Source: a phage. From it: 64,000 nucleotides of DNA. The notes beneath the pieces are model-generated. The model searched no databases. It was given only the letters and a program-made list of their open reading frames with translations, and was not told where the DNA came from. The position numbers and the translations under genes were made by a program. The stretch lies in assembly GCA_036253495.1 (NCBI GenBank), contig GCA_036253495.1_4125.1; one strand, 5' to 3'. Positions 10,025 through 61,221 of the stretch are shown piece after piece (positions within the stretch are counted from its first letter, which is position 1; every line of letters begins with the position of its first letter).

Positions 10025-10987
10025 GTGAAGAAACTAGACTTAAACGCAATTTCCGAAGAAGTACTGGATGAATGTTTTGCGAATGAAGAAGTCAATCCAT
10101 TGGAAGCAATTGAACCATCAGAAGTTATTGAAGATGATATTCCACATAAAGTTCGTAGTAAAAGTAACATTAGTCTCAAGCGTCCAGTAGGTGTGACTAA
10201 TGAATCCATCATCGAAGAGATTCGTGCTGGAATTAATGTAAAAAAGAACACTGACCTATTACTTCGTTATAACTATGGTATGATCGTTGATGTTGCTTCA
10301 AAGTGTACATGTTATATTCCGTTTGAAGATAAAATTGCATATGGTGTAGAAGGTTTTATGCGAGCACTTAAAACCTTTGATCTTAGTAAGAATGTCAAAT
10401 TCATTACATATGCAACAACGTCCGTTTATATGACTATGTATAATGAAAGTTCAGATGCAAATTACATGGTGTACTTACCACGTTATATGAGCGTTCATAA
10501 CATCCAAGTACGTCGATTTAATGAATCATATCAACGTGAACACGGTAAGCGACCTACACCAGAATTAATCTCTGAGAGTACTGGTATCGAGCTTCAGCAC
10601 GTTAAGAACTGTTTGTTATACCAGAATGCATATACGACTCTTGATGCACAACTGGGTTCAGATTCAGACGGAACCCTTGGGGATATTCTGAGTTCATCTG
10701 CTCGTGATTATAACCTTAATGTTGATAGCATTTGTAATCCATTACGTTATGCAATCACAGAAATCATTGACGAATTGAGTACTAAAGAACGAGAAATTAT
10801 CATGCGTGTTCATGGTCTGGGGGATTACAAAGCAGAAACCCTTCGTGAAATTTCTGATAATGGATATGTTGATGATAAAGGAAACATTGTTAAGTCCCGT
10901 TCATCTGTGCACCGAAAATATAGTGAAGCTATTCAAAAGCTTAAAAAAATAGTACTTGAAAAAGGGTACGAATACGAAGATTTCTAA
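10025..10987 (+). CDS. sigma-70 family RNA polymerase sigma factor
   Basis: Region 2 signature EGFMRALKTFD..KFITYATTSVYMTM matches the conserved sigma70 FD...G..FSTYA pattern; C-terminal region-4-like segment; GTG start after AGGAGA. Confidence 0.8.
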   Translation: MKKLDLNAISEEVLDECFANEEVNPLEAIEPSEVIEDDIPHKVRSKSNISLKRPVGVTNESIIEEIRAGINVKKNTDLLLRYNYGMIVDVASKCTCYIPFEDKIAYGVEGFMRALKTFDLSKNVKFITYATTSVYMTMYNESSDANYMVYLPRYMSVHNIQVRRFNESYQREHGKRPTPELISESTGIELQHVKNCLLYQNAYTTLDAQLGSDSDGTLGDILSSSARDYNLNVDSICNPLRYAITEIIDELSTKEREIIMRVHGLGDYKAETLREISDNGYVDDKGNIVKSRSSVHRKYSEAIQKLKKIVLEKGYEYEDF

Positions 10988-10994
10988 AGAACAA

Positions 10995-11021
10995 GGGTTG
11001 ACTTAGGTCAGCCCTTTTTTT
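10995..11021 (+). terminator. Rho-independent terminator
   Basis: GGGTTGACTTAGGTCAGCCC hairpin followed by T7 run. Confidence 0.7.
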
Positions 11022-11545
11022 ATGGGACAAAATGGATGTTCATGATACAATGATATTGTACAATTCTGTTGGCATGGATGACATGAACCTGATCCACTCG
11101 AAAATGTAGAGGGCAGTTGAGCAGTCCAGCAGTGCGAAGTGCAGAAGAAACCCGTCAGATGTGGGCATATTATGAACCCCTCACGGCAATGCGGCACTAT
11201 AAAGAACCACGTTAGGATGGCTGGTGGTTCCTCGATAGACATATAAGGATAACACCTTACAAATTATCTAAGGGAGAGTTATCAAATTTTGTACAGGAAA
11301 GTTGCGTCCAAAATTTGAGTACTCACATTAAGTATTTGATTGCATAGATACTTAATGAAGATACACTATGTTTAAAAGTGTAGACCGTCATATGAAACTG
11401 AAGTAGAGAGAAACAGGATGACCCGCTTTCGTACTCATTAAGAGTAATCTTCAATGCAATAGCTCTGATACCATCAGCGTCAAATTCCCCTCCCAGCGGG
11501 GGGAAGAAAAATCCCTTCCTCAAATCCCGTCAATATTAAAAGTCC

Positions 11546-12069: not shown

Positions 12070-12864
12070 ATGAGTACTATCGATGAATTGATTCGACGGA
12101 ATTCAAAATATTACCAACCATCAGAAATTGTGGATAATATTACTAAATCTGAGTTTGGACCTAATACTCGCAAACTCATTCATGTAATGTCTCGTGACGG
12201 CTTTAAATGTGATTGTTGTGGTGAATCCAATGTAGTATTCACTTTACATAAGCACAGTACTAAAGAACGTTATAAATTCAGACCTTATGTACTTAAAGGG
12301 AAACGTCTTGTACGCATGACGTTAGACCATAATGTACTGGACTGTCTCCAGGGTGGTAATGATAAAGAGAACATGACTGCACTGTGTGAGGATTGTAATG
12401 CCTTACGCCAGCATAAGTTCGCAGAGTACAGCGAGTTTAAGTACTGGTATCATAATGCAGACCGTTCAATTGAGCCTAATGTAAACTACTGCTTCATTGA
12501 GTACATCAAGAATGCAAAAGATACATACATTCTTAAATCCATGTCTCCGATTACAGTGTTTCCTGAGAATCTATTCAGTACTATGGAGCGTGATTTCAAG
12601 CGTGGTATCATCAATGCATTCAAGCACTTAGACAAAGGTATCAAGCACTTTGATGTTGAATGTTTAAATTCAGGTATGAATCATTTAGTACAAATTTACA
12701 TGAAATCGTTTATAGGTATTGACAGTGCACGACTACCAGTATATAATTACTTTATTGAAAGCGTAGAAGGTGAATCACTTCGTGATTATGGTGAAAGATT
12801 TAATAAGAAAGTTTTCACTGCAATAGCAAATGAGATTCATTACTATAAACCATATGTAATTTAA
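12070..12864 (+). CDS. HNH endonuclease (putative homing endonuclease)
   Basis: CDCCG ... LDHNVLDCLQGGNDKENMTALCEDCN HNH-type motif; ATG 12070 after GAGGA. Confidence 0.65.
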   Translation: MSTIDELIRRNSKYYQPSEIVDNITKSEFGPNTRKLIHVMSRDGFKCDCCGESNVVFTLHKHSTKERYKFRPYVLKGKRLVRMTLDHNVLDCLQGGNDKENMTALCEDCNALRQHKFAEYSEFKYWYHNADRSIEPNVNYCFIEYIKNAKDTYILKSMSPITVFPENLFSTMERDFKRGIINAFKHLDKGIKHFDVECLNSGMNHLVQIYMKSFIGIDSARLPVYNYFIESVEGESLRDYGERFNKKVFTAIANEIHYYKPYVI

Positions 12865-18692: not shown

Positions 18693-19067
18693 ATGTTCAA
18701 TAGTATCATTGGGTTCTCATTAGTACTTCCACAAATCATTTTTGGTATTTGTTTTGTAACTTTTATGATGGGGTCAATCTATGGTATATGGTATTACATT
18801 TTAAAACAATCAGATGGAATCATTTTAAAAATAACAATGCATTTTGATGTGGATTCACCAGCATGGAATTCATCTATTATTACCAATACATTGTATTTTA
18901 TGATGATCATTTTGGAACAATTGGGATTTGTATCTAATAGTAATGTTTCTATGACCGCAGGTATGGCAAGTATTTGTTGTTTGTGGTATATTGTTTATAA
19001 GATTGATGTGTTGTATAATATGTATCGTGAAATGGTATTGAACAGAGATATGCAGAGGAAAAAATGA
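18693..19067 (+). CDS. small membrane protein
   Basis: 124 aa hydrophobic ORF. Confidence 0.55.
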   Translation: MFNSIIGFSLVLPQIIFGICFVTFMMGSIYGIWYYILKQSDGIILKITMHFDVDSPAWNSSIITNTLYFMMIILEQLGFVSNSNVSMTAGMASICCLWYIVYKIDVLYNMYREMVLNRDMQRKK

Positions 19068-19417
19068 TGAAAGTTATATTATTTTTTATGTGTATTATTA
19101 TGTGTGGTGTCTCTTATGCTGCACCCTTAGCCGGATTGCTTTGTAAAGAGAATTCTGAACAACACATATTCCAAGGGGATTCAGATGACCTTGATATCAT
19201 TTACATCGATGGTACTGAATATACATACGTTAAAGACCATACTGTTGGTGATATCAGTTTCACTGAATATGCAAAAACAGGTGACACTGATTATAGAGCC
19301 TACCTTCAAGTGAATATGATAGAGGGTGAAGACGGAACACAAGAAGTCAAACTCGTACTTAAACGTATTGGAGATAAGGAGGCTGATTTTGGAGGTGAGT
19401 GTACATATGATGATTGA
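19064..19417 (+). CDS. putative secreted protein
   Basis: Signal peptide; C-terminal KLVLKRIGDKEADFGGECTYDD. Confidence 0.55.
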   Translation: MMKVILFFMCIIMCGVSYAAPLAGLLCKENSEQHIFQGDSDDLDIIYIDGTEYTYVKDHTVGDISFTEYAKTGDTDYRAYLQVNMIEGEDGTQEVKLVLKRIGDKEADFGGECTYDD

Positions 19418-19425
19418 TTAAAAAA

Positions 19426-19458
19426 GGTTGACTAACGTCAGCCTTTTTTGTTATACTG
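19426..19458 (+). terminator. terminator hairpin overlapping promoter -35
   Basis: GGTTGACTAACGTCAGCC hairpin, T-run, then TATACT. Confidence 0.6.
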
Positions 19459-19466
19459 ATCCCAAT

Positions 19467-19592
19467 ATGCTTGCATTTCTTCAAGTTGATGTATATGAAG
19501 AAAGTAATGGCGAACAGTATGTTAAACTTGTGATGATGCGTAAGGCAGCAAAACAGGCAACATTCGGTGGCTTGTGTAAATATGAGGACTAA
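19467..19592 (+). pseudogene. truncated paralog remnant of the 19064 secreted-protein family
   Basis: 41-aa ORF ending KLVMMRKAAKQATFGGLCKYED, resembling the C-terminus of 19064..19417. Confidence 0.35.
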
Positions 19593-19596
19593 ACAT

Positions 19597-19788
19597 ATGT
19601 TGATTTATCAATGTGATAACATTCGTGTTATACAGCATCCCTACTTACAAATCTTTGATGTGCAGCAGTATATGGAAGGTGATGACCCAAGAACCTATGG
19701 TCGTAAGTATGATTACTTCACTGTAAAGCAGTGTCGTAACATCAAAGAAGTACGACAATTAGTTCAAGAACTTCAAAATAAAGGTTGA
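19597..19788 (+). CDS. hypothetical small protein
   Basis: ATG 19597 after GAGGA; track ORF from 19567. Confidence 0.5.
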   Translation: MLIYQCDNIRVIQHPYLQIFDVQQYMEGDDPRTYGRKYDYFTVKQCRNIKEVRQLVQELQNKG

Positions 19789-19814
19789 CTTCGGTCAGCC
19801 TTTTTTGTTATAAT
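19783..19814 (+). terminator. terminator hairpin overlapping promoter -35
   Basis: GGTTGAC-TTCG-GTCAGCC, T-run, TATAAT. Confidence 0.7.
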
Positions 19815-19843
19815 CATTTCATCTACTACTGGGGATTTTAATT

Positions 19844-20284
19844 ATGTATGTATATCGTTTTGAACTTAAATTCAGTTATATTGAACCTAACTTAGATCCT
19901 GCAAAAACAGTAGGACCGTTCGCACGGTACTCTTCGCGATACAGTACTAAAAATGGATTTGAACGTTTGTGTATGACTACACCTTCGCAATTCCAACCTG
20001 AGCCAACTGAAGATGGGATCTATTCAATCAAACGTGGCTGGGCATTTGGATGCCAAAGTTTAAACGACCTGTTCAGATTCTTTACAATGGACTTAGGTAA
20101 ACTTCATCGTTCAGGATTTTCTGTTTTTGTGTATGAAGTTCCTGATAACCATGTAGACATTGGACATAACCAAGTGCAGTACTATTGTGGTAGTGCAAAA
20201 CTACTTCGTATTATGTCAGTAAAGGAAGCTAAAGAAGAATTTCGTGCTACAAGATTTAATAAGGAAGAGATGGCATATGGATAA
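19844..20284 (+). CDS. hypothetical protein
   Basis: 146 aa ORF. Confidence 0.55.
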   Translation: MYVYRFELKFSYIEPNLDPAKTVGPFARYSSRYSTKNGFERLCMTTPSQFQPEPTEDGIYSIKRGWAFGCQSLNDLFRFFTMDLGKLHRSGFSVFVYEVPDNHVDIGHNQVQYYCGSAKLLRIMSVKEAKEEFRATRFNKEEMAYG

Positions 20285-20633
20285 AACATCAACACGATTT
20301 GCAAAGTTCTTGAGTTATGAGATACCACAAGATCCGTATTTCGACCAACGTGACGATGAAGATTACATAAAGTTAACTCGTGAACTACGAAATAAGTTCC
20401 AACAGATTTTAAGTTCATACACTAATACACATCCACATTTAAAGTACTTCATTAAGGCAGATATAGATTCAGATGATTCTGAACTATCATTCCTTGAATA
20501 CACAGTTGAGTGTGTTGGGTATGTACCTGATAATAGTGTAATTAATCACAACAAAATAAAGTTCGACTTGTACGTTATTTGTGTTATAATGAACTTAATT
20601 GCACAAATGAACAACTATTCAATAGGGGATTAA
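20277..20633 (+). CDS. hypothetical protein
   Basis: ATG 20277 overlapping upstream stop; track ORF from 20244. Confidence 0.5.
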   Translation: MDKTSTRFAKFLSYEIPQDPYFDQRDDEDYIKLTRELRNKFQQILSSYTNTHPHLKYFIKADIDSDDSELSFLEYTVECVGYVPDNSVINHNKIKFDLYVICVIMNLIAQMNNYSIGD

Positions 20634-20897
20634 ATGAAACTGAAATTGAACTATCATGGTTTTCGTCTGCGTGATGATGTGGAGTTCCTTCGTCGCACAC
20701 CAGGTGCTGAGTTGTTTTTAACTGAAATGGGTGTCCCATTTAAAGTCGAGCACATTGGTGACAATGACTGCCTGGTATATGATAATCAACCGGATATCAA
20801 CGTTCCGTGGTATTCTGAACATATGTACATTGATATGGCGGCTCGCTACAACTGTACGTTTGAAATTACATCTAAAGGTATTGCTATTCAATTCTAA
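20634..20897 (+). CDS. hypothetical protein
   Basis: 87 aa ORF. Confidence 0.5.
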   Translation: MKLKLNYHGFRLRDDVEFLRRTPGAELFLTEMGVPFKVEHIGDNDCLVYDNQPDINVPWYSEHMYIDMAARYNCTFEITSKGIAIQF

Positions 20898-20918
20898 TAG
20901 TCTGATGGACACGAGTAA

Positions 20919-21143
20919 ATGAAATACATGCTGGTGGCATTAATGTTTGTGAGCACAATAGTACAAGCCAGAATCAAGTACTTTGTGAAGTGTACAAACG
21001 TTAGCGGTGGCTACACAGAGACATATCAGGGTAAGTCGGTTAAGATGGCAATACACAATGATAGAGGAACAGTGATTTTCCTTGTGAATGATATAATCAT
21101 TTTGTACAAACCAGATGTACCATGTGAAGTAAAAAGATATTAA
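20919..21143 (+). CDS. putative secreted small protein
   Basis: Signal-like N-terminus. Confidence 0.5.
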   Translation: MKYMLVALMFVSTIVQARIKYFVKCTNVSGGYTETYQGKSVKMAIHNDRGTVIFLVNDIIILYKPDVPCEVKRY

Positions 21144-21148
21144 ACTAC

Positions 21149-21180
21149 GGGGTTGGCATAAGTCAGCCCTTTTGTATAAT
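21149..21180 (+). terminator. terminator hairpin overlapping promoter
   Basis: GGTTGGCATAAGTCAGCC hairpin, T-run, TATAAT. Confidence 0.5.
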
Positions 21181-21188
21181 GGTGACTT

Positions 21189-21767
21189 ATGAACCGTAAA
21201 GGTAAGTTTAAAGTATCAAAGAAGAATAAAAGTGGAAGGTTCAATGATATATGCTTAGGTTTTATCAAAGCACACAATAAACTTTCTGCCCTGAGTAGAA
21301 AGATAGTATCTAACAAGATTGATATTAGATATATAAGTACTAACAATAGTACAGGGAAAGATGCACATCCAACTGAAAATATTATTTCAGTATCCTTCGT
21401 ATACGATGGTCTGGACATTACGATAGATGATTACAGACGATACGGTACTGGGTTTATACGTATCTATTGCAGAGATGCATCTGATAAGCCGGAACGTATT
21501 CGTATTATCGGTACATTGAGTGCTGGTATATTTGAGTGGGAGATTGTTCAACTTAAAACTATCGATGAGTACACCACAAGTTCTAATATTATTGAGTTGA
21601 ATTGCAATGTGAAAGACCTCCCAAACTTGAGCGAAGAAGAATATTTTCAAGAAAGCTTGCTAACGCCAAATTTGGATGATATAATTAAACAATATAAGAC
21701 GATGGTGTACTTCTTCAAATGTATCAAACCTAAGACTTGTTTGATGAATATTGTCCGTGATCTATAA
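21189..21767 (+). CDS. hypothetical protein; LSEEEYFQ motif family
   Basis: 192 aa; motif shared with 71..538 and 1088..1552. Confidence 0.55.
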   Translation: MNRKGKFKVSKKNKSGRFNDICLGFIKAHNKLSALSRKIVSNKIDIRYISTNNSTGKDAHPTENIISVSFVYDGLDITIDDYRRYGTGFIRIYCRDASDKPERIRIIGTLSAGIFEWEIVQLKTIDEYTTSSNIIELNCNVKDLPNLSEEEYFQESLLTPNLDDIIKQYKTMVYFFKCIKPKTCLMNIVRDL

Positions 21768-21778
21768 CAGGAAAAAAT

Positions 21779-22210
21779 ATGTGGGTTAACGTTAATAGTA
21801 CTGAACTTAATGAAATTGATATCTTTGCATTTGTTAATCTGGAAACTGATACCTTTGTTCGTGGACGTTTGTTCATGAGTTCTTCCTGTGTTCGCAGTAT
21901 TGCAGTTATGGATGAACTCGGTCAGGTAATTGAGTGTCTACCATTACCTGCATGGGCATATAGCAGTACTGAAGAAGATGTAATGCATAAGATCTTTGAA
22001 GGTATCAATAAGCTACCTGGTGCAGATGTGAAGAATAAGATATTCAACATTGAGAATAAGAACTACAGTGCAGATGTACTGCGTCCTTTAGTTGATTCAG
22101 TACTGCAAGCTGCATTAGCTAAACCTAAGTGCATTATTTTAAAGTACATTCCAGAACTTTCCCTAACTAAAGAGGATATGAAAGGATTTATATTCTCATC
22201 GGAGTTGTGA
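21779..22210 (+). CDS. hypothetical protein
   Basis: 143 aa ORF. Confidence 0.55.
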   Translation: MWVNVNSTELNEIDIFAFVNLETDTFVRGRLFMSSSCVRSIAVMDELGQVIECLPLPAWAYSSTEEDVMHKIFEGINKLPGADVKNKIFNIENKNYSADVLRPLVDSVLQAALAKPKCIILKYIPELSLTKEDMKGFIFSSEL

Positions 22211-22434
22211 TGAAAAGGTATAAAATTGAATACCTACTTAAAGTAAGAGAGAAAAGTATTAGTAGTGAGAAATACACCAGTGAGATATTCGTCAGAGATG
22301 AGTATTACATTGGTGAAAATGAAGTTGAAGTACTGTTACAATGCATAGAAAATGAATTTCGAGATATGACACGTTATATGTCATTTGAGATATCGTGTGC
22401 AAAAGTTACATTCTTGAACAATACTTCATATTAA
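22207..22434 (+). CDS. hypothetical small protein
   Basis: 75 aa, ATGA overlap. Confidence 0.5.
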   Translation: MMKRYKIEYLLKVREKSISSEKYTSEIFVRDEYYIGENEVEVLLQCIENEFRDMTRYMSFEISCAKVTFLNNTSY

Positions 22435-22437
22435 AAA

Positions 22438-22480
22438 AGGGTTGACTTTTGTTGACCCTTTTTGCTATTCTATAAATATA
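22438..22480 (+). terminator. terminator hairpin overlapping promoter
   Basis: GGGTTGACTTTTGTTGACCC imperfect hairpin, T-run, AT-rich -10. Confidence 0.5.
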
Positions 22481-22524
22481 GACATAGAGAATATATAACA
22501 TGAAATCTATGGAGAGAAATCAAA

Positions 22525-24063
22525 ATGCCAGGTAAATTCACTGACAAAAACGGCGGCAATATGGCTGGACACTCTGATAAATGGAGTGATGAGAATCGTC
22601 GCAAAAATAGTTTCCAAGCGGGGCAAGGTTCCCGTGGCTCTCGCAACCAAGGAACGGGAGAAGCTGGGAAAGCAAACACAGTTGCATCACAGGGTCTTGA
22701 TACTTCAAACATGTCCCAGCATGAAAAATTGAAGTACTTCAATAGTCTTGGTCTTTTAAATCCGCAGCAGAAGCAACAACTTGCTGCTCTGGATAAAGCA
22801 CAAGAACAACCTAAAGCAGCACCTGAAGCACCTGCACAGCCTAAAGCGGCTAATCCGGTAAAAGAACTAAGTGATAAACTTGGGAAGATCTTTGCTAACA
22901 AACCACAACTAATTCAAGGTATCGTAAAAGCACTTCAAGCGGTTCCTAAAGAACAACTCAAGGATAAAGCACAAGCTGTTCTTGATAGTATGAAAGGGAA
23001 TACCAGTACTGAACCAACTGAAGTATTCAGTACTATCATGCGTGCACTTGAAGGTAAGCCACAGGCCGATGATGATATTGAGTTTGATGAACCTGCACAA
23101 GAAGTAGCAAATCTTGACTCAATCGTTTCTACATTTGGAAAAATTGGTGCAGAAGATAAGACTAATGCACAACAAGTTAAGAATGTACAAGCTAAGTTAC
23201 AAAATCGTCTTGAAGGTAAAGATGAAAAGATTAAACTTGCAGCAGATGCGTTGAAGAAAGCATTAGAATCATATAAACCTGGTGAGAAATCTCGCTTCAT
23301 TACTGCAATGAATGCAGTATTCGGTGCAATGAAAAAGTATGAAGCTGAACACGGTGAGAAAGTAACTCCTGATGGATATCTCCTTCGAAAAGATGAAGAA
23401 GGTGCTGTTGACCAGAAGGACGCTGAACCAGACTATGGTGATTTACCGGATACAGTTGATATGGATGGTTACATTCATCGTCCTGATATGCAAGAATTTG
23501 GTTCAGACAAAGAAGGTTTTGAACATGCTATGGCTGTGTACAAAGCATTAGTCGATAATCCACAATATGCAAATAGTTTTGTAGATGAGTTTGATAGTGC
23601 ATGGAACAACTACCAAGACAAAGGATATGATTTCCCAGCAGAAGCAGCATTCTTTGAACTAGGTAAACTTCTTGCTAAAAATGGTATTAATGTTGGTTCT
23701 AATGGTGAAGCAAACACTTCAGAAATGGACGCTGAATTGGCTAAAGATCGTGAAATGACTGATAAGTCAATTCATGAACTACAAAAGCTAATGATGTGGA
23801 TTGCTGAAATTGGTAAGAAAGCTGGTGCAGATCCTAAGAGCATTAACAGCAATATTAGTTGGATTAAACATAAGGTTGATAACAATGCCCGTAAATTACA
23901 AAAGGCATGGACCGACCTAGTGAATGGTGCAGACGATGTTGATATCGATTCACCGGAAGCATACGAGTACGCATTGAACACACTTGATAACTCTTTCCAG
24001 GATTACGAAAATGGTAACGTAACTGATTGGGAAAAGGATATCATGCATAAGTACGGTAAATGA
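22525..24063 (+). CDS. hypothetical K/A/E/Q-rich low-complexity protein
   Basis: 512 aa, GGAGAG RBS; largest plus-strand ORF in the left module. Confidence 0.65.
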   Translation: MPGKFTDKNGGNMAGHSDKWSDENRRKNSFQAGQGSRGSRNQGTGEAGKANTVASQGLDTSNMSQHEKLKYFNSLGLLNPQQKQQLAALDKAQEQPKAAPEAPAQPKAANPVKELSDKLGKIFANKPQLIQGIVKALQAVPKEQLKDKAQAVLDSMKGNTSTEPTEVFSTIMRALEGKPQADDDIEFDEPAQEVANLDSIVSTFGKIGAEDKTNAQQVKNVQAKLQNRLEGKDEKIKLAADALKKALESYKPGEKSRFITAMNAVFGAMKKYEAEHGEKVTPDGYLLRKDEEGAVDQKDAEPDYGDLPDTVDMDGYIHRPDMQEFGSDKEGFEHAMAVYKALVDNPQYANSFVDEFDSAWNNYQDKGYDFPAEAAFFELGKLLAKNGINVGSNGEANTSEMDAELAKDREMTDKSIHELQKLMMWIAEIGKKAGADPKSINSNISWIKHKVDNNARKLQKAWTDLVNGADDVDIDSPEAYEYALNTLDNSFQDYENGNVTDWEKDIMHKYGK

Positions 24064-24072
24064 TAAAAAAGA

Positions 24073-24104
24073 GGTTGACTTCGGTCAGCCTTTTTTGCTA
24101 TAAT
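24073..24104 (+). terminator. terminator hairpin overlapping promoter -35
   Basis: GGTTGAC-TTCG-GTCAGCC, T-run, TATAAT. Confidence 0.7.
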
Positions 24105-24131
24105 ACTCACATAACCTAAAGGAGAAACTCT

Positions 24132-24407
24132 ATGAACACATACGAACGTTTAGTTGGCTCAATGCGTTATGAAGAAATTTTAAGTGATATCGAAGAACTG
24201 AAAGACTCGAAAAGTTACATCCACTTAGATGAACTTATCGTGAAGTATGGGGAGGTTGGTGCAAAAGAATTAATTTGCTTTATGGTTCATGTTCGAAATT
24301 TAAATTACTTTGATCTTTCATCGAAGAACGGTGAACCGAATCTTTATTATCTATATTATTTGAAACATAAAGATGCATGTAATAAATTATTCTTAGAACT
24401 TTTATAA
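24132..24407 (+). CDS. hypothetical protein
   Basis: 91 aa, AAGGAG RBS. Confidence 0.55.
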   Translation: MNTYERLVGSMRYEEILSDIEELKDSKSYIHLDELIVKYGEVGAKELICFMVHVRNLNYFDLSSKNGEPNLYYLYYLKHKDACNKLFLELL

Positions 24408-24420
24408 CTGGAGATATCTA

Positions 24421-24681
24421 ATGCAAAACCCTGAATTGAAAATGTTTACACAAATCCGTCTTGCTCGTGTTGAACATGACACTAACTATGTACTGAACGA
24501 TGGTCCTCCACAACGCGTTGAAGTTGGTTATATTGACGTTGATAATTCACAATCTCTTCTGATTACCATTGGTTCTAACTCTTACAGTGTTGCTACACTG
24601 GAGAGTGTATTGTCCTTGGCACAATCCGCAAGGATTGCCCGTAACGCTCTTATGAACTGTGATGAACCTGATAATGAATGA
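24421..24681 (+). CDS. hypothetical protein
   Basis: 86 aa ORF. Confidence 0.5.
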   Translation: MQNPELKMFTQIRLARVEHDTNYVLNDGPPQRVEVGYIDVDNSQSLLITIGSNSYSVATLESVLSLAQSARIARNALMNCDEPDNE

Positions 24682-25012
24682 TTATATGTATGAATTAAAC
24701 ATGATATCGTTTGTTTTATCGGGTATCGGATGGATGTACTATATGCTTGGGTATATTTTATTATTCTTCCGATACAATACATTCTACAAACGCTATTGGG
24801 ATGATGCACCAATTCACTTCTTCGCATTTGTATTCTTAACTATGGCAGTGGGTGAAGTACTGCTAACTGGTATCCAAAATACTGGTGGAATGATGTGCAC
24901 ACTAACAACATTCTTTGTTGTTTTTGGGACTGTAGTTTGGTTTTTCGCGTGGGGACTCTTCTCTTTGATTATGAAACTTGAGAAACTCCGAGACAAATTA
25001 CCAGAGCGTTGA
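24659..25012 (+). CDS. small membrane protein (start uncertain)
   Basis: 117 aa hydrophobic ORF overlapping upstream gene. Confidence 0.45.
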   Translation: MMNLIMNDYMYELNMISFVLSGIGWMYYMLGYILLFFRYNTFYKRYWDDAPIHFFAFVFLTMAVGEVLLTGIQNTGGMMCTLTTFFVVFGTVVWFFAWGLFSLIMKLEKLRDKLPER

Positions 25013-25022
25013 TGAAAAGTAT

Positions 25023-25078
25023 TTGACAAACTCAACTAGTACTGTATAATGTTTATCAAGGGGATGAACTTCTCATCC
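25023..25078 (+). promoter_or_regulatory. sigma70-like promoter plus 5' hairpin
   Basis: TTGACA, 16 bp spacer, TATAAT, then GGGATGA-ACTTC-TCATCCC hairpin before the RBS. Confidence 0.55.
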
Positions 25079-25097
25079 CTACAATCGAGGAACTACC

Positions 25098-25652
25098 ATG
25101 ATTACTTTTAAGAAAACTGCCAACCACATCCATGAAATCTACATTAACGGTCACAAAGCTGGCCTTCTTCGTTTACTCGCCCATCATCCTGATGCTACCG
25201 TATCTGATAATGAACCTAAAGATTGGCGTGTCTTTTTCTTTGGGAAGTACAGTGATTTTCAAGTATCAAACCTGAAGAACATTCGTTCAGTATGCACGTT
25301 AACTGAAATTAAAGAAAAGTTAGCCAAAGCATTGAAAACTAATCCAGATGGTGTTCTTCCACCTGATAACTTTGTAGAGAAAGGATATGCCTTAGCTCAT
25401 TTCAAAGATGGTACTATTCAATCTATCAGTACTGAATATGAATACCAATGGACTGAGTACTTCACTTATGGCTCCCGTGATACTTTGATGGCTTCACGTA
25501 GTAAATTGGAAGAAGTACTGACTCGTATGAATGAACGCGAGCGTCAGTACTATGACAAACCAGAAATGTGGAGTTCAACTTACATTGACCGTATTGACTA
25601 TGTTATGATGACTCCAATCTTTGACACTGCTTACTATGATTCTTTGAAATAA
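25098..25652 (+). CDS. hypothetical protein
   Basis: 184 aa, GAGGAA RBS. Confidence 0.6.
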   Translation: MITFKKTANHIHEIYINGHKAGLLRLLAHHPDATVSDNEPKDWRVFFFGKYSDFQVSNLKNIRSVCTLTEIKEKLAKALKTNPDGVLPPDNFVEKGYALAHFKDGTIQSISTEYEYQWTEYFTYGSRDTLMASRSKLEEVLTRMNERERQYYDKPEMWSSTYIDRIDYVMMTPIFDTAYYDSLK

Positions 25653-25663
25653 GGATAACTTAT

Positions 25664-25840
25664 ATGAAACTACGTACTCGTAATCGACTGATGGATGCCC
25701 TATATCATGAACAGTGTTCATTAAATGAAGTAAAGCGTCAGTTAATGTACACATATCAGTTACCCGCTCGTGTTGCAAAACAACGTGCTAACGAATTGCT
25801 GAAAGAAGCAATCGAGTACTGGGAATCTGATTCGTACTAA
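25664..25840 (+). CDS. hypothetical small protein
   Basis: 58 aa hand-translated; AAGGAT RBS. Confidence 0.4.
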   Translation: MKLRTRNRLMDALYHEQCSLNEVKRQLMYTYQLPARVAKQRANELLKEAIEYWESDSY

Positions 25841-25879
25841 TATTACGTGATATGTCACGTTAATTAAGTGAGGCGATAA

Positions 25880-26131
25880 ATGAAAATTTTATTAGTTCTA
25901 ATACTACTAATTGTTTTACCATTTACTTTAGTATCCCCTGAACTTGCATGGAATGTGTTTGTGTACTTAGTATGTACTATTGTAGTAAATGGTATCTTGT
26001 TCTTAGTTCTATTCATAAATGGAATAGGACACGGTGGAGGATGGACCAGTACTGCTGATATTGTACATAAAACCACTATGTCTTTATTTGTAGTGTGGAA
26101 TTTATTCTGGACTTGGTTTGTGTTCTTCTAA
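25880..26131 (+). CDS. small membrane protein
   Basis: 83 aa hydrophobic. Confidence 0.5.
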   Translation: MKILLVLILLIVLPFTLVSPELAWNVFVYLVCTIVVNGILFLVLFINGIGHGGGWTSTADIVHKTTMSLFVVWNLFWTWFVFF

Positions 26132-26140
26132 TTAAAAAAT

Positions 26141-26512
26141 ATGAATATAGATTTGAAAGGTGCAACACGAACTGTCATACTCATTGGGGAATATGCTATC
26201 AAGATTCCAACCTTCAAAAGCTGGAAGTTATTCCTAATTGGAATGATAGCTAACCTCAATGAACGCTCATGGATGCAGTACTCCAAGCGTAGTGATAGTG
26301 GGATATGTCCTACTCTGTGGTCATCGCGAACTGGCTTAATAACAGTACAGAAACGTTGTAAGCCAGTACAACATAGGGGTTTGTTTTGGGTGGAGTTGAG
26401 TGCATTAGCATTGAATTCAGAGTTGAGTACTGACTTCTTCTATTCAGATGCGAAGCCAGAAAACTTTGGATATTTGAATGGTAAGTTAGTTAAGCTTGAT
26501 TATGGAGATTGA
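26141..26512 (+). CDS. hypothetical protein
   Basis: 123 aa ORF, weak RBS. Confidence 0.4.
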   Translation: MNIDLKGATRTVILIGEYAIKIPTFKSWKLFLIGMIANLNERSWMQYSKRSDSGICPTLWSSRTGLITVQKRCKPVQHRGLFWVELSALALNSELSTDFFYSDAKPENFGYLNGKLVKLDYGD

Positions 26513-26597
26513 TAAGTTTATGGAAATTGTTTTAATCGTTGCATTTGTTACATTAGTATGTACTACCATTTAATATATTTTACGAGGATAATGTGAA

Positions 26598-26927
26598 ATG
26601 AAAAAACTACTAACTATTTTAGTACTATCTGCTATTACGTTGACGGCTGGATGTACCGTTAAAAAAGATTTATTCCCTGTTGGTGGAAGTAAAGCTGATG
26701 GTGTTATTAGGCTTGGATACACATTCGACCAGCGATCTGAAATTCCATTAATTGATTTGGAACAGGGATTGTATGTAGCTACTAAACGATGCCAAAAGTG
26801 GGGATATTCAGGTGCTGAAATTTTTGGTGGCTCCACAACAATGTGTTCTGACCAACGTCCACTGGGGTGTGTTGCAACAAATGTCACATATGAATATCAA
26901 TGTACTGGTGACTTAAAAGAAAAATAA
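26598..26927 (+). CDS. putative lipoprotein
   Basis: Signal peptide with LTAGC lipobox-like site. Confidence 0.55.
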   Translation: MKKLLTILVLSAITLTAGCTVKKDLFPVGGSKADGVIRLGYTFDQRSEIPLIDLEQGLYVATKRCQKWGYSGAEIFGGSTTMCSDQRPLGCVATNVTYEYQCTGDLKEK

Positions 26928-26935
26928 TCTTTTAC

Positions 26936-26968
26936 ATGGGTTGACTTCGTTCAGCCCTTTTTGCTATA
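26936..26968 (+). terminator. terminator hairpin overlapping promoter -35
   Basis: GGGTTGACTTCGTTCAGCCC, T-run, TATAAT. Confidence 0.65.
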
Positions 26969-26998
26969 ATTATTTCATCAAGACGAGAGGATGAATAC

Positions 26999-27436
26999 AT
27001 GACCCGCATTAACTTAGTACACGTTAAAGAACTTGCTGACCAACATCTGATGGCTGAATATCGTGAACTTCCACGTGTATTTGGTGCTGTACAAAAACAT
27101 GTTCAAGCACGTAAGCGTGTACGTGATTTCAAAATTAACAGTACTTATCTGTTAGGTTCAGGTCATGTAACATTCTTCTACGACAAGTTACTATACTTAC
27201 AGAAGCGTCATATTGATATTGTTAACGAATGTTTGCGTCGTGGTATGAAGATTCAAAACACTGAAGTAAACGACATTAGCGGCTTCCCTGCTGAGTTTTG
27301 TAATGACTACGTACCATCGGAGTCCGAGATTAAAACATCACGCGAGCGTTTGATTGAGAAGCTTCAGATGAAGCCTAAGTGGTATAAGTTTACTGATGTT
27401 GAGCTACCTATATATTATGTTGATATGATACAATGA
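26999..27436 (+). CDS. denV: pyrimidine dimer DNA glycosylase (T4 endonuclease V homolog)
   Basis: N-terminus [30 protein letters not shown]...KRVRDFKI and HVTFFYDKL closely match T4 EndoV as recalled from memory. Confidence 0.88.
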
Positions 27437-27660
27437 ATGATGAAGAATTCAAAAAATATGCGATTGCGAAGCTTGATTCATACAAGTCACGCGAAACGTA
27501 TAAATTTAATCCTGATAAAACAAAAGCATCTATAAGATGGATGATTAATTCACCCAAATATACATTTGACGAAAAATATTCATGGATAGTGCAATGTAGT
27601 GATTATGAGGATTTGGTATATAATATTAAACTGTGTTGGTATGAATACAACAATAAATGA
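27433..27660 (+). CDS. hypothetical small protein
   Basis: 75 aa, ATGA overlap. Confidence 0.5.
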
Positions 27661-27666
27661 TATAAG

Positions 27667-27699
27667 GGGTTGACTTCGGTCAGCCCTTTTTGCTATAAT
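27667..27699 (+). terminator. terminator hairpin overlapping promoter -35
   Basis: GGTTGAC-TTCG-GTCAGCC, T-run, TATAAT. Confidence 0.7.
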
Positions 27700-27725
27700 C
27701 ATTTCATCAACTCAAGAGGTAATAC

Positions 27726-27965
27726 ATGAAACTATCTTTTATACGTTTAGCAGAATTCTTCGGTACTGATATAATTACTTTACAACAAATTGCAGACAAT
27801 ACTTCATTAAGCACACAAGAAGTACTTGACTTAGATGTGATAGAGTGTGATAATACTTCTATCGATTATAAAGAAGGTCTTGTCGAAAAAGATAAGATTC
27901 AGGCTAAGATTAATGGTGCTGGACGGGTTCAGTACTGGAAAGGGGTTTTAAGTAATGCGTGTTGA
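27726..27965 (+). CDS. hypothetical small protein
   Basis: 79 aa ORF. Confidence 0.5.
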   Translation: MKLSFIRLAEFFGTDIITLQQIADNTSLSTQEVLDLDVIECDNTSIDYKEGLVEKDKIQAKINGAGRVQYWKGVLSNAC

Positions 27966-29289
27966 TATTAAAGTACCTTTTAAATGTGAACCACTGAAAT
28001 TTGTCCAAGATTATGAAATATCTAAAACTATCGAATTTAGTGAAACCGCTTCAAAACTTGATATTAGTAGGAAAATTTTAGGTGAAAAGTATCCAGATGT
28101 AATATGGGATGATTTCAATCCATATAATATGGAAAAAGATGAAATGTGTAAAGACGAAATTATTGGCTTTGTTCGTATGGGAGTTCAAAATCTAAAATAT
28201 TATGCATATATATGTCAAAAATGCTCGACAAATTCAAAACAAAATGGTTTAGGTATATTTTTTACATTAAAAAGATATATTAAAAATAAAATTACATGTA
28301 TGTGCTCAAAAACACCACTATATACAAATTATCAACGAACTATACAACTTCATAATAAATCTATAAGTTTAGGTTATGTGTTTATTGGATATAATAAAGA
28401 AAAACAAATAACTTCGGATGCTAAAATAAAACTAGGATGTTATAATCATGGTATGTGGGATACTATAACAATAAATTCGTATAACACCAACTCACGCGGC
28501 TGTTCAAAATGTGCTGGTGTTCATTCACCATCACAGGAAGAAGCAAATGAAAAAATAAAACAAATTTGTAATGAAAATAAATTAGTATTTCAACCTTTCC
28601 TATATAAAAATAATAAAACTAAAATTTTTGTAAGATGTTTGGTATGTAATGAATCATGGGAGTCAAACTATTTTAAACTTTATACCATGAAATATGGTTG
28701 CCAACGTTGTGTAGGAACAAAAAAGTTAACTACTGAGATTTCTACAGGAATTGTATCAGATTATTGTACAAAATATAAGTTGACTTTCATTCCATTTGTG
28801 TATGATAATAATAAGATGAAAATATCTCTACGTTGTGATATTTGTTCACATGAATGGATAACACCATTCAATGGTATTACTAATAGAATGGGGTGTCCAA
28901 GATGTAATCCAACTGAAGCAATACGTATTTCTAAAGATTTAGATCCATTAATAGATGATTTTCAGCCGGAAAAGAAATTCCTTGAACTTGGAAAGATGCG
29001 ATTTGATAGATTCAGTCAACGATTAAACATTCTGTTTGAATATGATGGGGAACAACACTTTATTTCCAATAGGGTTTGGCATTCTACTACATCTAAGTTT
29101 GAATCTTCTCGTGAACGTGACAGTATAAAAACAGAATACGCAATAAAAAATGGATATAACTTCATTCGTATTGCGTATTATGAAGACCATATTGGAGCAT
29201 TGAAATCTTTCCTTAAACTCATTGAAGAGAATCCAGGAAAGCAAATCGTACAGATCTATGGTGATGTTCAAATCTTAGACAAGAAATAA
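27955..29289 (+). CDS. zinc-ribbon-repeat protein with C-terminal nuclease-like domain
   Basis: Repeated C..C pairs (CQKCS, CSKCAG, CLVCNE..GCQRC, CDICSH..GCPRC); C-terminal FEYDGEQHF..R..D..K..G..IRI motif. Confidence 0.5.
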   Translation: MRVDIKVPFKCEPLKFVQDYEISKTIEFSETASKLDISRKILGEKYPDVIWDDFNPYNMEKDEMCKDEIIGFVRMGVQNLKYYAYICQKCSTNSKQNGLGIFFTLKRYIKNKITCMCSKTPLYTNYQRTIQLHNKSISLGYVFIGYNKEKQITSDAKIKLGCYNHGMWDTITINSYNTNSRGCSKCAGVHSPSQEEANEKIKQICNENKLVFQPFLYKNNKTKIFVRCLVCNESWESNYFKLYTMKYGCQRCVGTKKLTTEISTGIVSDYCTKYKLTFIPFVYDNNKMKISLRCDICSHEWITPFNGITNRMGCPRCNPTEAIRISKDLDPLIDDFQPEKKFLELGKMRFDRFSQRLNILFEYDGEQHFISNRVWHSTTSKFESSRERDSIKTEYAIKNGYNFIRIAYYEDHIGALKSFLKLIEENPGKQIVQIYGDVQILDKK

Positions 29290-29299
29290 CAATACAAAA

Positions 29300-29332
29300 G
29301 GGTTGACTTCGGTCAGCCCTTTTTGCTATAAT
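29300..29332 (+). terminator. terminator hairpin overlapping promoter -35
   Basis: GGTTGAC-TTCG-GTCAGCC, T-run, TATAAT. Confidence 0.7.
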
Positions 29333-29360
29333 TATTTCATCAACTGATGAGGACAACGAA

Positions 29361-30131
29361 ATGACCAGAGAAGCACGCAGCATTCAAATTCAGAAAAACT
29401 TCAACTCCATGATGGTTGCTCTTGAGTGTTTGCTCGATGATAGCAGTACTGTAAAAAGTATGGTTGTCAGCGGTGCTCCTGGTGTTGGTAAGACTTACAC
29501 CCTCTCTAAACGCCTCCAGAAAGCACATGACGCGGCAGAATGGAACGTAGCTACCATCAGTGGTAAAATGACCACTCTGGCTCTGTACGAAGTTCTGTAC
29601 AAGAATCGTCATAGCACCAACGTGTTAGTACTGGATGATATGGACAGCATCTTTGATTCAGAAGACGGTATGAACCTGCTCAAAGCAGTACTGGATAGTG
29701 GCAAGCGTACTGTTTCTTATATGACTAGCTCGAAGTATCTGAGCAGCAACGGTATCCCTAACAGCTTTGATTTTAATGGTCGCATCGTATTCATTACTAA
29801 CAAAGATTTAGCACTGAATGCTAAAGCTAAAACTAAAATGTCTGCTCACTATGCTGCTCTTATGTCTCGCTCTGTATACGTTGACTTACAGATCCAGACC
29901 AAAAGCGATATCATGATTCACATTGAGAACGTGATGAACCAGACCAACATTCTGGAATCTAAGGGTATTAACAGTAATGGTAGTAAAGCAATCCTGAACT
30001 GGATGTTGAAGCACGAAGATTCACTTCGTTCACCTTCACTGCGTATGCCACTGTTGATTTCGGCAGTATATAACAACAACCCATACGATTGGGAAGAGCA
30101 ATGTGAAAACTTGTTCCTGGAGAAAAATTAA
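29361..30131 (+). CDS. P-loop NTPase (AAA-like ATPase)
   Basis: Walker A GAPGVGKT and Walker B-like VLVLDDMD; codon composition looks GC-richer than its neighbours. Confidence 0.75.
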   Translation: MTREARSIQIQKNFNSMMVALECLLDDSSTVKSMVVSGAPGVGKTYTLSKRLQKAHDAAEWNVATISGKMTTLALYEVLYKNRHSTNVLVLDDMDSIFDSEDGMNLLKAVLDSGKRTVSYMTSSKYLSSNGIPNSFDFNGRIVFITNKDLALNAKAKTKMSAHYAALMSRSVYVDLQIQTKSDIMIHIENVMNQTNILESKGINSNGSKAILNWMLKHEDSLRSPSLRMPLLISAVYNNNPYDWEEQCENLFLEKN

Positions 30132-33376: not shown

Positions 33377-33407
33377 TAAAAAAAGCCCACTTAATGTGGG
33401 CTTTTTG
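33377..33407. terminator. bidirectional Rho-independent terminator
   Basis: AGCCCACTTAATGTGGGCT hairpin flanked by A-run and T-run between convergent genes. Confidence 0.7.
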
Positions 33408-36561: not shown

Positions 36562-37914
36562 TTACAACAATTGTATTTCTGTGAGTGTTTGATATGTTGT
36601 ACCGTTGTACACACCTCTCCAATATACCCTACCTTCAGTACTAACCACTAATAGTCCATATGTTGTAAACCCAAGAGTACCACCAACATACATAGCATCT
36701 TTAATTCGAATACCAATGTCTTCATATGTAAATGAAGCGACTGCTCCCGCTTGCCACGAAGGACTAGCGTAGTAATCACTATAAACACCATGTGCTTTAT
36801 ATATTGATGTTGTTCCTGGTTCAAAAATTACAGTTCCACAGTAGTTCATTCGTATTTTAGTACTGGATGAAGTCGGTACATTTATACCTATGCCATCTTT
36901 TATCCCTGTCGTTAGGACGTTAAAACCACCCGCCACACGGTTGACGTCATTCGCACCGATTAAAAACATACCAACGTTGTATCCCATATAATATACACTA
37001 CTACTTCCATTCCAGAAAGAAAAACCACCACCATTACCACAGCGATATAGTTGTGAATTTGAGCAGTACATCATACCTTCGTTTGTCGCATCAAATTCAT
37101 CTGCTGTTCCTATTGTAGCTACAGTAGTCCACGTTTTAATCACTTGGTTTGTACTAGCTGGTGTTTGTATACCATATCGTATATTATATCCCTTACCAAC
37201 GATTGTACCATCTTCTAATTTAGCATAAAGTACAGGTCTATTACCAACAAAATACATATTATTGTGTGACATGTCTATTGTGCATCTTAATGAAACTACT
37301 TTTTGTGTCAATTGATTATCTTTAGTAAAAGAAGTAAAGTAGTAATCCGATGTTGAGTTGTTTATTAAACCTTGTATTGACAATCCCATATACCAGATTT
37401 CACCATTGCTGTTTAATGCTGCCAAAATACAACTATATTTTGAAGTGTATGCTGGTGATGTTGTTGAAGTTGCTGGTCCTTTATCATATCCACCACAGAA
37501 TACCATCTCCACAACTTCACCTACGTTCGAAAAATAAGAAGATACATTGATAAAACCATTTGTTATAAAAGGTGCTGTATTCATACTTGAATGTGTGAAT
37601 ATCCCATTTGCATATACACCACAAAAATGATATGAACCATCATTATCTTGGACTATTATTCCATTTGATAGTAACCAAAAATTGTTTACATTTTTTCTTA
37701 CTAATTCAACTCCTGCACCATTGGTTGGTGTTATACCAAAAGAAACATATTTTGTTTGACCAATACCATATAAATTTCCATTAGTTGCTAGTATTGCACC
37801 AAACCAGTTCCCACCACCATTCCTATCATGACCCATACCAATGGAGTCGAATTTCTTTACAGTAGGAACTTCAACTTTATTCCCATAATCCAACATTCTT
37901 ACAAAAGGTAACAT
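36562..37914 (-). CDS. RCC1-like propeller paralog 1 (putative receptor-binding protein)
   Basis: Start reassigned to MLPFVRMLDYGN after AAAGGAGG RBS; G-N-G-x-L-G repeats. Confidence 0.7.
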   Translation of the reverse strand: MLPFVRMLDYGNKVEVPTVKKFDSIGMGHDRNGGGNWFGAILATNGNLYGIGQTKYVSFGITPTNGAGVELVRKNVNNFWLLSNGIIVQDNDGSYHFCGVYANGIFTHSSMNTAPFITNGFINVSSYFSNVGEVVEMVFCGGYDKGPATSTTSPAYTSKYSCILAALNSNGEIWYMGLSIQGLINNSTSDYYFTSFTKDNQLTQKVVSLRCTIDMSHNNMYFVGNRPVLYAKLEDGTIVGKGYNIRYGIQTPASTNQVIKTWTTVATIGTADEFDATNEGMMYCSNSQLYRCGNGGGFSFWNGSSSVYYMGYNVGMFLIGANDVNRVAGGFNVLTTGIKDGIGINVPTSSSTKIRMNYCGTVIFEPGTTSIYKAHGVYSDYYASPSWQAGAVASFTYEDIGIRIKDAMYVGGTLGFTTYGLLVVSTEGRVYWRGVYNGTTYQTLTEIQLL

Positions 37915-61198: not shown

Positions 61199-61221
61199 TA
61201 TTCATTGAGAGATAGCTCACT

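Follow-up and report, generated by a model that had tools for sequence, protein, structure and literature searches.

A repeated hairpin whose 5' arm holds the -35 box of the following promoter: a probable terminator-promoter module in an Asteriusvirus jumbo coliphage

The stretch of DNA analysed here (the window) comprises 64,000 nt of phage sequence from GenBank assembly GCA_036253495.1, contig GCA_036253495.1_4125.1. A hairpin module occurs in it at ten sites on the + strand, and at nine of these a -10 box follows at the distance expected if the 5' arm of the hairpin is the -35 box. Judged by its anatomy, the module is very probably a composite of an intrinsic terminator or attenuator and an extended -10 early promoter, insulating short early operons, with the repeated sequence doubling as a recombination patch. 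By sequence identity the window is from an Asteriusvirus, a 121Q/RaK2-like jumbo coliphage. Positions 19000-30000 matched Escherichia phage A4 (ON286972, Asteriusvirus, 355 kb) with 98.9% identity over 84% of the length, and about 35 other 121Q/PBECO4-like jumbo coliphages matched the same region at 85-90% identity with 30-46% coverage in many pieces. The first 42 kb of the window was collinear with A4 throughout, apart from three indels (insertions or deletions) or replacements. The modules lie in a + strand series of small, mostly unannotated genes, which is followed by a block of RCC1-like genes on the - strand.

The index copy, GGTTGACTTCGGTCAGCCTTTTTTGTTATAAT, was laid out as follows, with score and predicted folding free energy in brackets.

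19783-19814, + strand: index module (64.5 bits, -13.3 kcal/mol)
19783-19789, + strand: 5' arm GGTTGAC
19785-19790, + strand: -35 box TTGACT
19786-19788, + strand: stop codon TGA of the upstream open reading frame (ORF), inside the -35 box
19790-19793, + strand: UUCG loop
19794-19800, + strand: 3' arm GTCAGCC
19801-19806, + strand: run of six T
19806-19808, + strand: TGT
19809-19814, + strand: -10 box TATAAT
19821, + strand: A, predicted transcription start
19831-19835, + strand: Shine-Dalgarno (SD) sequence GGGGA
19844, + strand: ATG

The layout proposed for this copy in an earlier, sequence-only reading of the window agreed with the sequence. That reading had listed nine modules and a terminator-only variant at 10995. 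The 18-mer GGTTGACTTCGGTCAGCC, with at most 3 mismatches, was found 8 times in the window, always on the + strand, where shuffled sequences lead one to expect 0.01 matches, and a strict pattern of hairpin, T-run and TATAAT was found 4 times against 0 expected. A covariance model was made from the ten window copies aligned with eight copies from relatives (alignment A2), and the window was searched with filters off. On the + strand exactly the ten listed sites were recovered, at 39.9-67.6 bits, and their antisense images scored at most 30 bits. No additional + strand copy scored above 20 bits; the next-best match, with 19.8 bits at 33377, was an unrelated terminator (AAAAAAAGCCCAC...GTGGGCTTTTT) at a convergent gene junction. 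The earlier list of sites is therefore complete and correct. Besides the index copy, it comprises the following.

10995-11021, + strand: terminator-only variant GGGTTGACTTAGGTCAGCCC followed by seven T, without a -10 box (48.1 bits, -16.0 kcal/mol)
19426-19457, + strand: module with UAAC loop and -10 box TATACT (-15.7 kcal/mol)
21150-21180, + strand: variant GGGTTGGC-AUAA-GTCAGCCC, site 21149 (39.9 bits, -13.9 kcal/mol)
22439-22471, + strand: variant GGGTTGAC-UUUU-GTTGACCC, site 22438 (-16.1 kcal/mol)
24073-24104, + strand: canonical module behind a 512-amino-acid (aa) ORF (-16.3 kcal/mol)
26938-26970, + strand: module upstream of denV (endonuclease V), site 26936 (-10.2 kcal/mol)
27667-27699, + strand: canonical module GGGTTGACTTCGGTCAGCCC with five T, GC and TATAAT (-16.3 kcal/mol)
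29300-29332, + strand: canonical module with the top covariance model score, 67.6 bits (-17.6 kcal/mol)
61167-61197, + strand: module with outer U-A pair, 17-bp spacer, -10 box TATTAT and 81-nt leader (-15.9 kcal/mol)

All ten have small hypothetical ORFs as neighbours and fall at 11-29 kb or at 61 kb; none was found in the - strand block at 33-46 kb. The variant at 10995 begins 7 nt past the stop codon of a gene for a sigma-70-family protein (10025-10987, + strand; Pfam sigma regions 2, 3 and 4). The copies share one architecture, as had been claimed, but are less uniform than was supposed, the exact 18-mer being present in only five of them (19783, 24073, 27668, 29301 and 61167). A spacing of 17-18 bp between the two boxes had also been given; it is 18 bp in seven copies and 17 bp in one, but 16 bp in another. 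The intergenic position holds for nine copies and fails at 19783, where the TGA within TTGAC is the stop codon of the upstream ORF. With this one overlap, stems start 4-10 nt past the upstream stop codon.

The canonical stem, GG(G)TTGAC/GTCAGCC(C), contains a U-G wobble at the fourth pair and is closed by a UUCG loop. Its core is 7-8 bp long and GC-clamped, and A-U pairs can lengthen it to 13 bp. The loop has 4 nt, or 6 nt in one copy, and a tract of U4-7 comes directly past the stem. The last five bases of the 5' arm and the first base of the loop make up the -35 box TTGACT. An A-rich sequence with consensus AAAAAAA abuts the 5' side of the stem (61 copies across lineages) and can pair with the U-tract. 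We take its position to be the one where a proximal UP subsite (Estrem et al. 1999) would lie.

The ten copies folded with free energies between -10.2 and -17.6 kcal/mol (z-scores between -2.9 and -7.9 against shuffles), and in the four copies compared the antisense RNA was 4.7-9.2 kcal/mol weaker than the sense RNA. Pairing was conserved in 98.6% of the cells of alignment A2, the outer pair covarying among G-C, A-U and U-A. A wider search with the covariance model covered 37 loci from related and unrelated phages and gave 133 matches. In these, 98.4% of the cells pair, three pairs change on both sides, and none of 500 shuffles reached the observed score. Two copies in 121Q carry GGAUUGAC...GUCAGUCC, a double-sided change to GGA..UCC, and the terminator behind the sigma gene in G17, slurp01 and JP4 reads UUGGC...GCCAA. 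Single changes mostly lead to wobble pairs, as in GTCGGCC, GTTAGCC and GTTGACC. In the 22438 copy the 3' arm is GTTGACC and has three changes, each compatible with pairing, and the stem of the 21149 copy is paired via a G-U wobble. The room for covariation is small, since the 5' arm is under constraint as a -35 box as well, and the pairing figures are supportive rather than independent proofs because the sequences are related.

The loops agree with this pattern. UNCG and GNRA loops stabilise RNA and do not stabilise duplex DNA. Of the 44 loops other than UUCG, 13 belonged to these classes (4.3% expected, p = 3e-8). The pairing and the loops together support the view that the hairpin behaves as a structure of the sense-strand RNA. 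A GC-rich stem of at least 5 bp, a loop of 3-8 nt, a U tract on the sense strand and compensatory pairing, the marks of an intrinsic terminator, were all found. We considered whether the conserved G that makes the U-G wobble is universal, perhaps because it avoids a TTGAC on the antisense strand. This was rejected, as the perfect palindrome GGTTGACNNNNGTCAACC is also common in viral contigs, where about a third of its sites are composite; loop-free searches of viral contigs likewise found wobble and perfect-palindrome forms both common and often composite.

For the promoter half, a -10 box (TATAAT, TATACT, TATTAT or TATTCT) was found 16-18 bp from the -35 box in 9 of the 10 window copies, and in 8 of these 9 it is preceded by TGn (TGC or TGT), giving an extended -10. 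The canonical 18-bp spacer consists of the 3' arm, T5-6, a G and one further base, so that a TG from the spacer completes TGnTATAAT. The seventh base past the -10 is the A of a CAT, and CAT lies 5-7 nt past the -10 in most copies across lineages. In seven copies an ATG with a preceding SD sequence stands 26-29 nt past the -10. The 5' arm is otherwise held to TTGAC; TTGGC was found mainly among terminator-only or weak copies. An independent consensus scan placed the module sites among the best promoters, scored as 11/12 promoters with TG, and also called several of them terminators.

The coupling of the -10 box to the hairpin was evaluated with exact 18-mers in IMG/VR (56 occurrences) and in 596 Gb of bacterial genomes (50 occurrences, where by our own calculation about 17 are expected by chance). 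A site was scored as composite if at least 4 of the next 6 nt were T and TAnnnT followed at 16-19 bp.

Viral 18-mers, 56 occurrences: 43 composite, 4 with the -10 only, 4 with the T-run only
Bacterial 18-mers, 50 occurrences: 2 composite, 1 with the -10 only, 18 with the T-run only

The difference was significant both overall (Fisher p = 1.7e-15) and among terminator-like sites (p = 1.3e-10). In phages, though not in bacteria, hairpin and -10 box go together, and the -10 box is therefore no side effect of a T-run in AT-rich DNA. By this comparison the promoter half appears to be under selection. The two copies without a -10 box, at 10995 and at 17349 in G17, retain the hairpin. The dual terminator and promoter function that had been claimed is thus supported at the sequence level by the consensus scan, folding, conserved pairing, tetraloops and the coupling of the -10.

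Based on these features, we infer that transcription would end and start again within the module in the following way. Upstream transcripts, read from the + strand, would fold the GC-clamped hairpin GG(G)UUGAC-UUCG-GUCAGCC(C), which with its U5-6 tract would act as an intrinsic terminator or attenuator, placing 3' ends in the spacer or the -10 region of the next promoter. At the DNA level the 5' arm would serve as the -35 box TTGACT, the 3' arm with the T-run as a 16-18 bp spacer, and TGn-TATAAT as the extended -10, while the upstream A-tract would extend the stem and resemble a proximal UP element. Initiation by host sigma-70 RNA polymerase would take place about 7 nt past the -10, at the A of the conserved CAT, and produce a short leader with an SD sequence for the next early gene. 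The early region would be split in this way into insulated units of 1-10 small genes each. The module may also serve as a homology patch, because a sequence of about 45 nt is repeated, and at this patch cargo genes would be inserted, lost or swapped.

Some observations weigh against this reading. Termination is probably incomplete, because the U-tracts are short (5-6) and the stems lie near stop codons, within the footprint of the ribosome. The stem of the 26936 copy is weakened, its closing pair being broken to give the 6-nt loop. A spacer of 18 bp is suboptimal for sigma-70. The -10 of the 22438 copy is weak (TGC-TATTCT; the 5' untranslated region is 53 nt long). At 19426 and 21149 an ATG stands 8-9 nt past the -10, so that either the mRNA is leaderless or the ORF is not real. 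The 21149 copy has TTGGCA as its -35 box, a 16-bp spacer and a TATAAT without TGn; the ATG of a 192-aa ORF lies 8 nt past this TATAAT without an SD sequence (21175-21191, + strand), and because of this distance the mRNA may be leaderless. The phage encodes a sigma-70-family protein of its own, so that the sigma factor used may be this one or that of the host. Data on 5' or 3' ends were not found for any RaK2-like phage in the searchable literature.

The modules were also said to be propagated as a unit and to mark points where accessory genes are exchanged. This is supported less strongly, the anatomy of the junctions being convincing at five places. Relative to A4 and other relatives, the following features adjoin modules.

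26515-26937, + strand: cargo insertion of 423 nt relative to A4, ending exactly at the 5' edge of the module at 26938
26598-26927, + strand: gene for a YecR-like lipoprotein in this insertion (Pfam YecR, 8.9e-22), absent from A4
27958-29288, + strand: replaced gene (444 aa; A4 has an unrelated gene of 565 aa), with the right boundary 11 nt before the module at 29300
19064-19592, + strand: cassette signature, consisting of a full divergent allele, the module at 19426 and then a gene remnant

The third difference from A4 is an indel inside a gene. At 12090-12610 (+ strand) the window has a gene in full length (264 aa) in which A4 shows a 520-nt internal deletion, flanked by an 11-nt overlap; its homologue is annotated as HNH endonuclease in JP4 and in G17 is said to resemble the HNH endonuclease of 121Q. 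The YecR-like gene is probably a host-derived accessory gene. No nucleotide homologue of it was found among 50,697 phage records. Recent capture from E. coli was tested and not borne out, as among 5,426 genomes a single one gave a match, to yecR, which covered 119 nt at only 74% identity.

In comparison with G17, slurp01 and JP4, blocks of homology start or stop at 22433, 24106, 26938, 27656 and 29284. The break at 24106 belongs to the module at 24073, where homology with G17 and slurp01 stops between the T-run and the -10. At the 19426 locus the allele at 19064-19417 (+ strand) is full length and 57% identical to G17_00123, and the 41-codon ORF at 19467-19592 (+ strand), whose ATG is 9 nt past the -10 of the module, is a C-terminal remnant of the same gene with 72.5% identity. 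This arrangement reads as the footprint of a gene-plus-module cassette that replaced the resident gene. In JP4 a gene insertion at 24102-24713 has a full module at its right junction and only AAGGATTCACTTC, a decayed 5' arm with the loop, at its left junction, and G17 carries a half-module, GGGTTGACTTCGG|TTACAC, at 23512. Both point to breakpoints at the hairpin loop.

Among close relatives, 5 of 7 recent intergenic indels end at most 32 nt from a module centre (binomial p = 0.002), and recent indels were found at 3 of 9 module junctions against 2 of 46 others (Fisher p = 0.027), both tests having been framed after inspection of the data. Three of the indel events fall into a single slot, the one upstream of the denV module. 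JP4 has an HNH endonuclease gene in this slot (L043 22373-22786), and slurp01 retains an 84-nt remnant made of the two ends of the HNH gene (L042 22921-23006), a pattern which, read from sequence, shows gain and decay of a homing-endonuclease gene beside the module. A broader synteny test at the protein level showed no more than a trend, which was not significant by either measure (5 of 9 vs 14 of 46, p = 0.14; 2 of 9 vs 3 of 46, p = 0.18). From the shared denV slot and this result it follows that traffic of homing endonucleases accounts for part of the pattern.

The mosaicism beside the modules might have nothing to do with them, homing-endonuclease invasion and decay together with illegitimate recombination producing the changes, and the modules being conserved islands at which BLAST blocks end. 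The denV slot and the synteny test fit this, as does the variable gene before the module at 29300, whose JP4 version is annotated as a homing endonuclease and whose product in the window has a treble-clef zinc finger; many breaks also lie at junctions without a module. It would not account for the 5' arm and loop duplicated by the JP4 insertion, the half-module in G17, the end of homology at 24073 between the T-run and the -10, or the closeness of five of the seven recent indels to a module centre. We regard this explanation as a real possibility, though somewhat unlikely.

With a 71-nt query, the module was found by BLAST in 178 phage records, at 6-9 places per Asteriusvirus genome. The records include Klebsiella RaK2-like phages, GAP32, CBB, Serratia BF, Yersinia fHe-Yen9-04 and Erwinia jumbo phages, and also KVP40-like Vibrio phages, T4-like Aeromonas phages, 150-kb Cronobacter and Pectobacterium phages and phage A9 of the Gram-positive Brochothrix. 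The copy in KVP40 is AAAAGGGTTGACTGCGGTCAGCCCTTTCGCGTATTAT, and that in A9 is GGGTTGACTTCGGTCAGCCCTTTTGTTATTAT. The sequence past the -10 is specific to the lineage, (T/C)ATTTCATCAA in Asteriusvirus and ATATACATCCAAAC in RaK2, which fits spread or homogenisation within genomes. One could go further and suppose that the likeness is not due to convergence, and that a near-identical cassette of 26-45 nt travels horizontally with its cargo genes from one phage family to another, unrelated one, for example in the form of PeSL (promoter-early stem-loop) mini-circles, recombining at the loop. We consider this doubtful.

The promoter half could be read by the sigma-70-family factor of the phage (10025-10987) in place of host sigma-70, which would make the modules middle-class and not immediate-early. 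The encoded protein has sigma regions 2, 3 and 4, and the window contains two or more distinct families of conserved promoters, but the hexamers of the module are near-consensus for host sigma-70, with TG, and the same module is found in KVP40, Aeromonas phage 65 and Brochothrix A9. These three phages are not known to have this sigma factor, which also counts against its use here. Recognition by the phage factor is possible but unnecessary, and we judge it improbable.

It is very improbable that the hairpin is a terminator only, with TTGAC and TATAAT arising as by-products of a GC-rich stem in AT-rich DNA and no initiation taking place. The variants at 10995 and at 17349 in G17, the 18 bacterial sites that are plain terminators, and the database records, which annotate a terminator alone, speak for such an explanation. 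Against it stand the fixed spacing of the -10 in 9 of 10 window copies and its presence in 43 of 56 viral but 2 of 50 bacterial sites, the conserved TGn, CAT start and SD/ATG, and the retention of TTGAC in the 5' arm except mainly in terminator-only or weak copies. That a regulator of the phage or its host binds the inverted repeat as a DNA operator, or that the repeat is a cruciform or a recombinase site, in each case serving a promoter and not an RNA terminator, is hardly credible: the repeat does overlap the -35, a frequent repressor site, and breakpoints do cluster at the loop, but the imperfection is strand-specific (the wobble at pair 4 becomes a C-A mismatch on the other strand), variants keep RNA pairing and not DNA symmetry, loops are enriched in RNA-stabilising UNCG and GNRA, the T-run always comes next and the hairpin always lies just past a stop codon, and a regulator shared by unrelated phages including a Gram-positive one is unlikely.

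The composite terminator and promoter has published relatives. Arbiol et al. 2010 (PMC2839356) described PeSLs in RB49 and phi1 as cassettes that recur between genes, each with a sigma-70 promoter near consensus, an AT-rich tract upstream and a stem-loop. In a lacZ test the terminating strength of cloned PeSL stem-loops was close to that of rrnB T1, and lacZ fusions showed the PeSL promoters to be very strong, to the point of toxicity. Five subclasses were distinguished by stem position, one of them with the stem overlapping the -35, and recombination between copies in RB49 was mapped to the hairpin loop and yields mini-circles (PMC2839356). The module resembles these PeSLs in combining a sigma-70-like early promoter, an AT-rich tract and a stem-loop between the stop codon and the SD/ATG, in being repeated in regions of small ORFans, and in the junction of JP4, which parallels their loop crossover; an association with indels, described for those PeSLs, is less certain here. 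It differs in its phage, an Asteriusvirus jumbo phage where theirs are Straboviridae of the T4 type, and in its stem, which is one near-fixed sequence (GGGTTGAC/GTCAGCCC with UUCG) where theirs are polyG/polyC at varied positions, in RB49 most often in the gap separating the -35 box from the -10 or over the -10. Activity and mini-circles were tested there, whereas the module is known here from its sequence.

PeSLs were later extended to T4/PST and KVP40/nt-1 (Comeau et al. 2014, PMC4122927). In the text of that paper, the KVP40/nt-1 stem consensus is A3-4 G3-loop-C3 T3-4 and the promoter consensus TTGYVH-N17-TAWWAT. The module fits this stem consensus, and the KVP40 copy has the same arms and 18-bp spacing; on the other hand, the legend of the PST figure, to which that for nt-1 conforms, puts the stem-loops just upstream of the promoter. 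The homologous hairpins in G17 and GAP32 are annotated as ARNold terminators. They are the same hairpins at orthologous positions (-13.5 to -17.0 kcal/mol), unlike the module as read here in that the records annotate no promoter overlapping the hairpin. In the CBB paper RpoD-like promoters and terminators are given separately and stem-loops are unmentioned. Lambdoid morons are likewise small accessory genes with their own transcription signals, comparable to the YecR-like gene beside its module. Their signals are separate, unrepeated and not thought to mediate mobility (PMC2839356), whereas the module is one repeated 32-bp dual element.

Promoter, stem-loop, AT-rich tract, intergenic position and repeats in a hyperplastic region of small genes, the features by which PeSLs are defined in sequence, were all found. 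By these the module matches a PeSL-type element of the subclass with the stem overlapping the -35; the architecture is already published and no new mechanism is proposed. Our literature search found no description of PeSLs in RaK2-like phages, and the present copies would extend PeSL-type composites from T4-like phages to the RaK2/121Q jumbo-phage clade. One solution, with the -35 in the 5' arm of a UUCG hairpin and the T-run as spacer, is reused in very different phages and almost never in bacteria. For annotation, hairpins recorded as terminators only should also be recorded as early promoters, and the operons of the host-takeover region would then be drawn differently. As to evolution, the loop crossovers and the remnant of a gene that follows a module are concrete junctions on which shuffling of cargo genes by modules can be tested in a further group of phages. 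The module could also serve as a compact 32-bp insulator part in engineering. The understanding of transcription itself is unchanged by the finding.

Several other elements of the window were noted. The 81-nt leader of the module at 61167 (61198-61278, + strand) contains GCCCACCGGGTG, and similar small hairpins of the CCCAUAGGG type occur in module-driven leaders of other phage contigs (L012, L019, L026, L003 and L025). That this module drives a tRNA or a known RNA was ruled out, as neither tRNAs nor Rfam families were found in the window. The next-best match of the covariance model, AAAAAAAGCCCACTTAATGTGGGCTTTTT at 33377-33406, lies at the junction of the convergent + and - gene blocks. Its stem stands between an A-tract and a T-tract, and it looks like a terminator that works in both directions.

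Between the terminator-only copy behind the sigma gene and the next ORF lies a conserved element of about 450 nt without ORFs (11060-11545, + strand). It is 92.6% identical across Asteriusviruses, against about 78% for the flanking genes, and 70-76% identical to Serratia BF, Yersinia fHe-Yen9-04 and CBB. Its homologues were located as follows.

L002, 3923-4423
L017, 6091-6524
L005, 2291-2729
L016, 3148-3502
L032, 7526-7781, - strand

RNAalifold predicted 99 pairs, 19 of them with compensatory double changes (six sequences), and many G-U pairs on the + strand. No match to Rfam 15 was found even at E <=1. The invariant block CGGCAATGCGGCNNTATAAAGAA matched in IMG/VR only 11 stretches, all in contigs of about 350-380 kb, which include the RaK2-like phages 121Q, CBB, GAP32, fHe-Yen9-04 and Serratia BF. 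The element is a candidate for an uncatalogued structured RNA.

In the - strand block, segments of about 100 nt with 80-92% identity recur at the boundaries of tandem RCC1-like paralogues, annotated as 'DNA condensation protein'. They lie at about the following positions.

37878-37980, - strand block
39129-39231, - strand block
40380-40490, - strand block
41621-41730, - strand block
42840-42955, - strand block
45169-45273, - strand block
46384-46474, - strand block

Copy number varies among relatives, with indels of 1.2-3.6 kb in JP4.

A second family of hairpin promoters, CAGTACTATTGACATAG(A/T)TTGATAGTACTG-GCATAAT, was found at 58572, 58876, 62757, 53748 and 63035 (+ strand). The AT-rich stem of 12 bp holds the -35 in the 5' arm, and its last bases are the TG of an extended -10. 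The hairpins, built on AGTACT repeats, fold with -14 to -23 kcal/mol and have no T-run. Many near-consensus promoters also have AGTACTG abutting the -10 on its 5' side (CAGTACTGTATAAT) and GTACT in the same position relative to the -35.

13434, 25023, 50991, 62446, 63643 and 63942, + strand: AGTACTG promoters
56139 and 53920, - strand: AGTACTG promoters
8299, 17556 and 27826: AGTACTG promoters

Some promoters of this type have a hairpin over the -10, such as GGAGTACAATGTACTCC (8299) and GGGGCTATTATATAATAGTCCC (62033). A regulator could bind the AGTACT palindrome, or the palindrome could provide the arms of hairpins.

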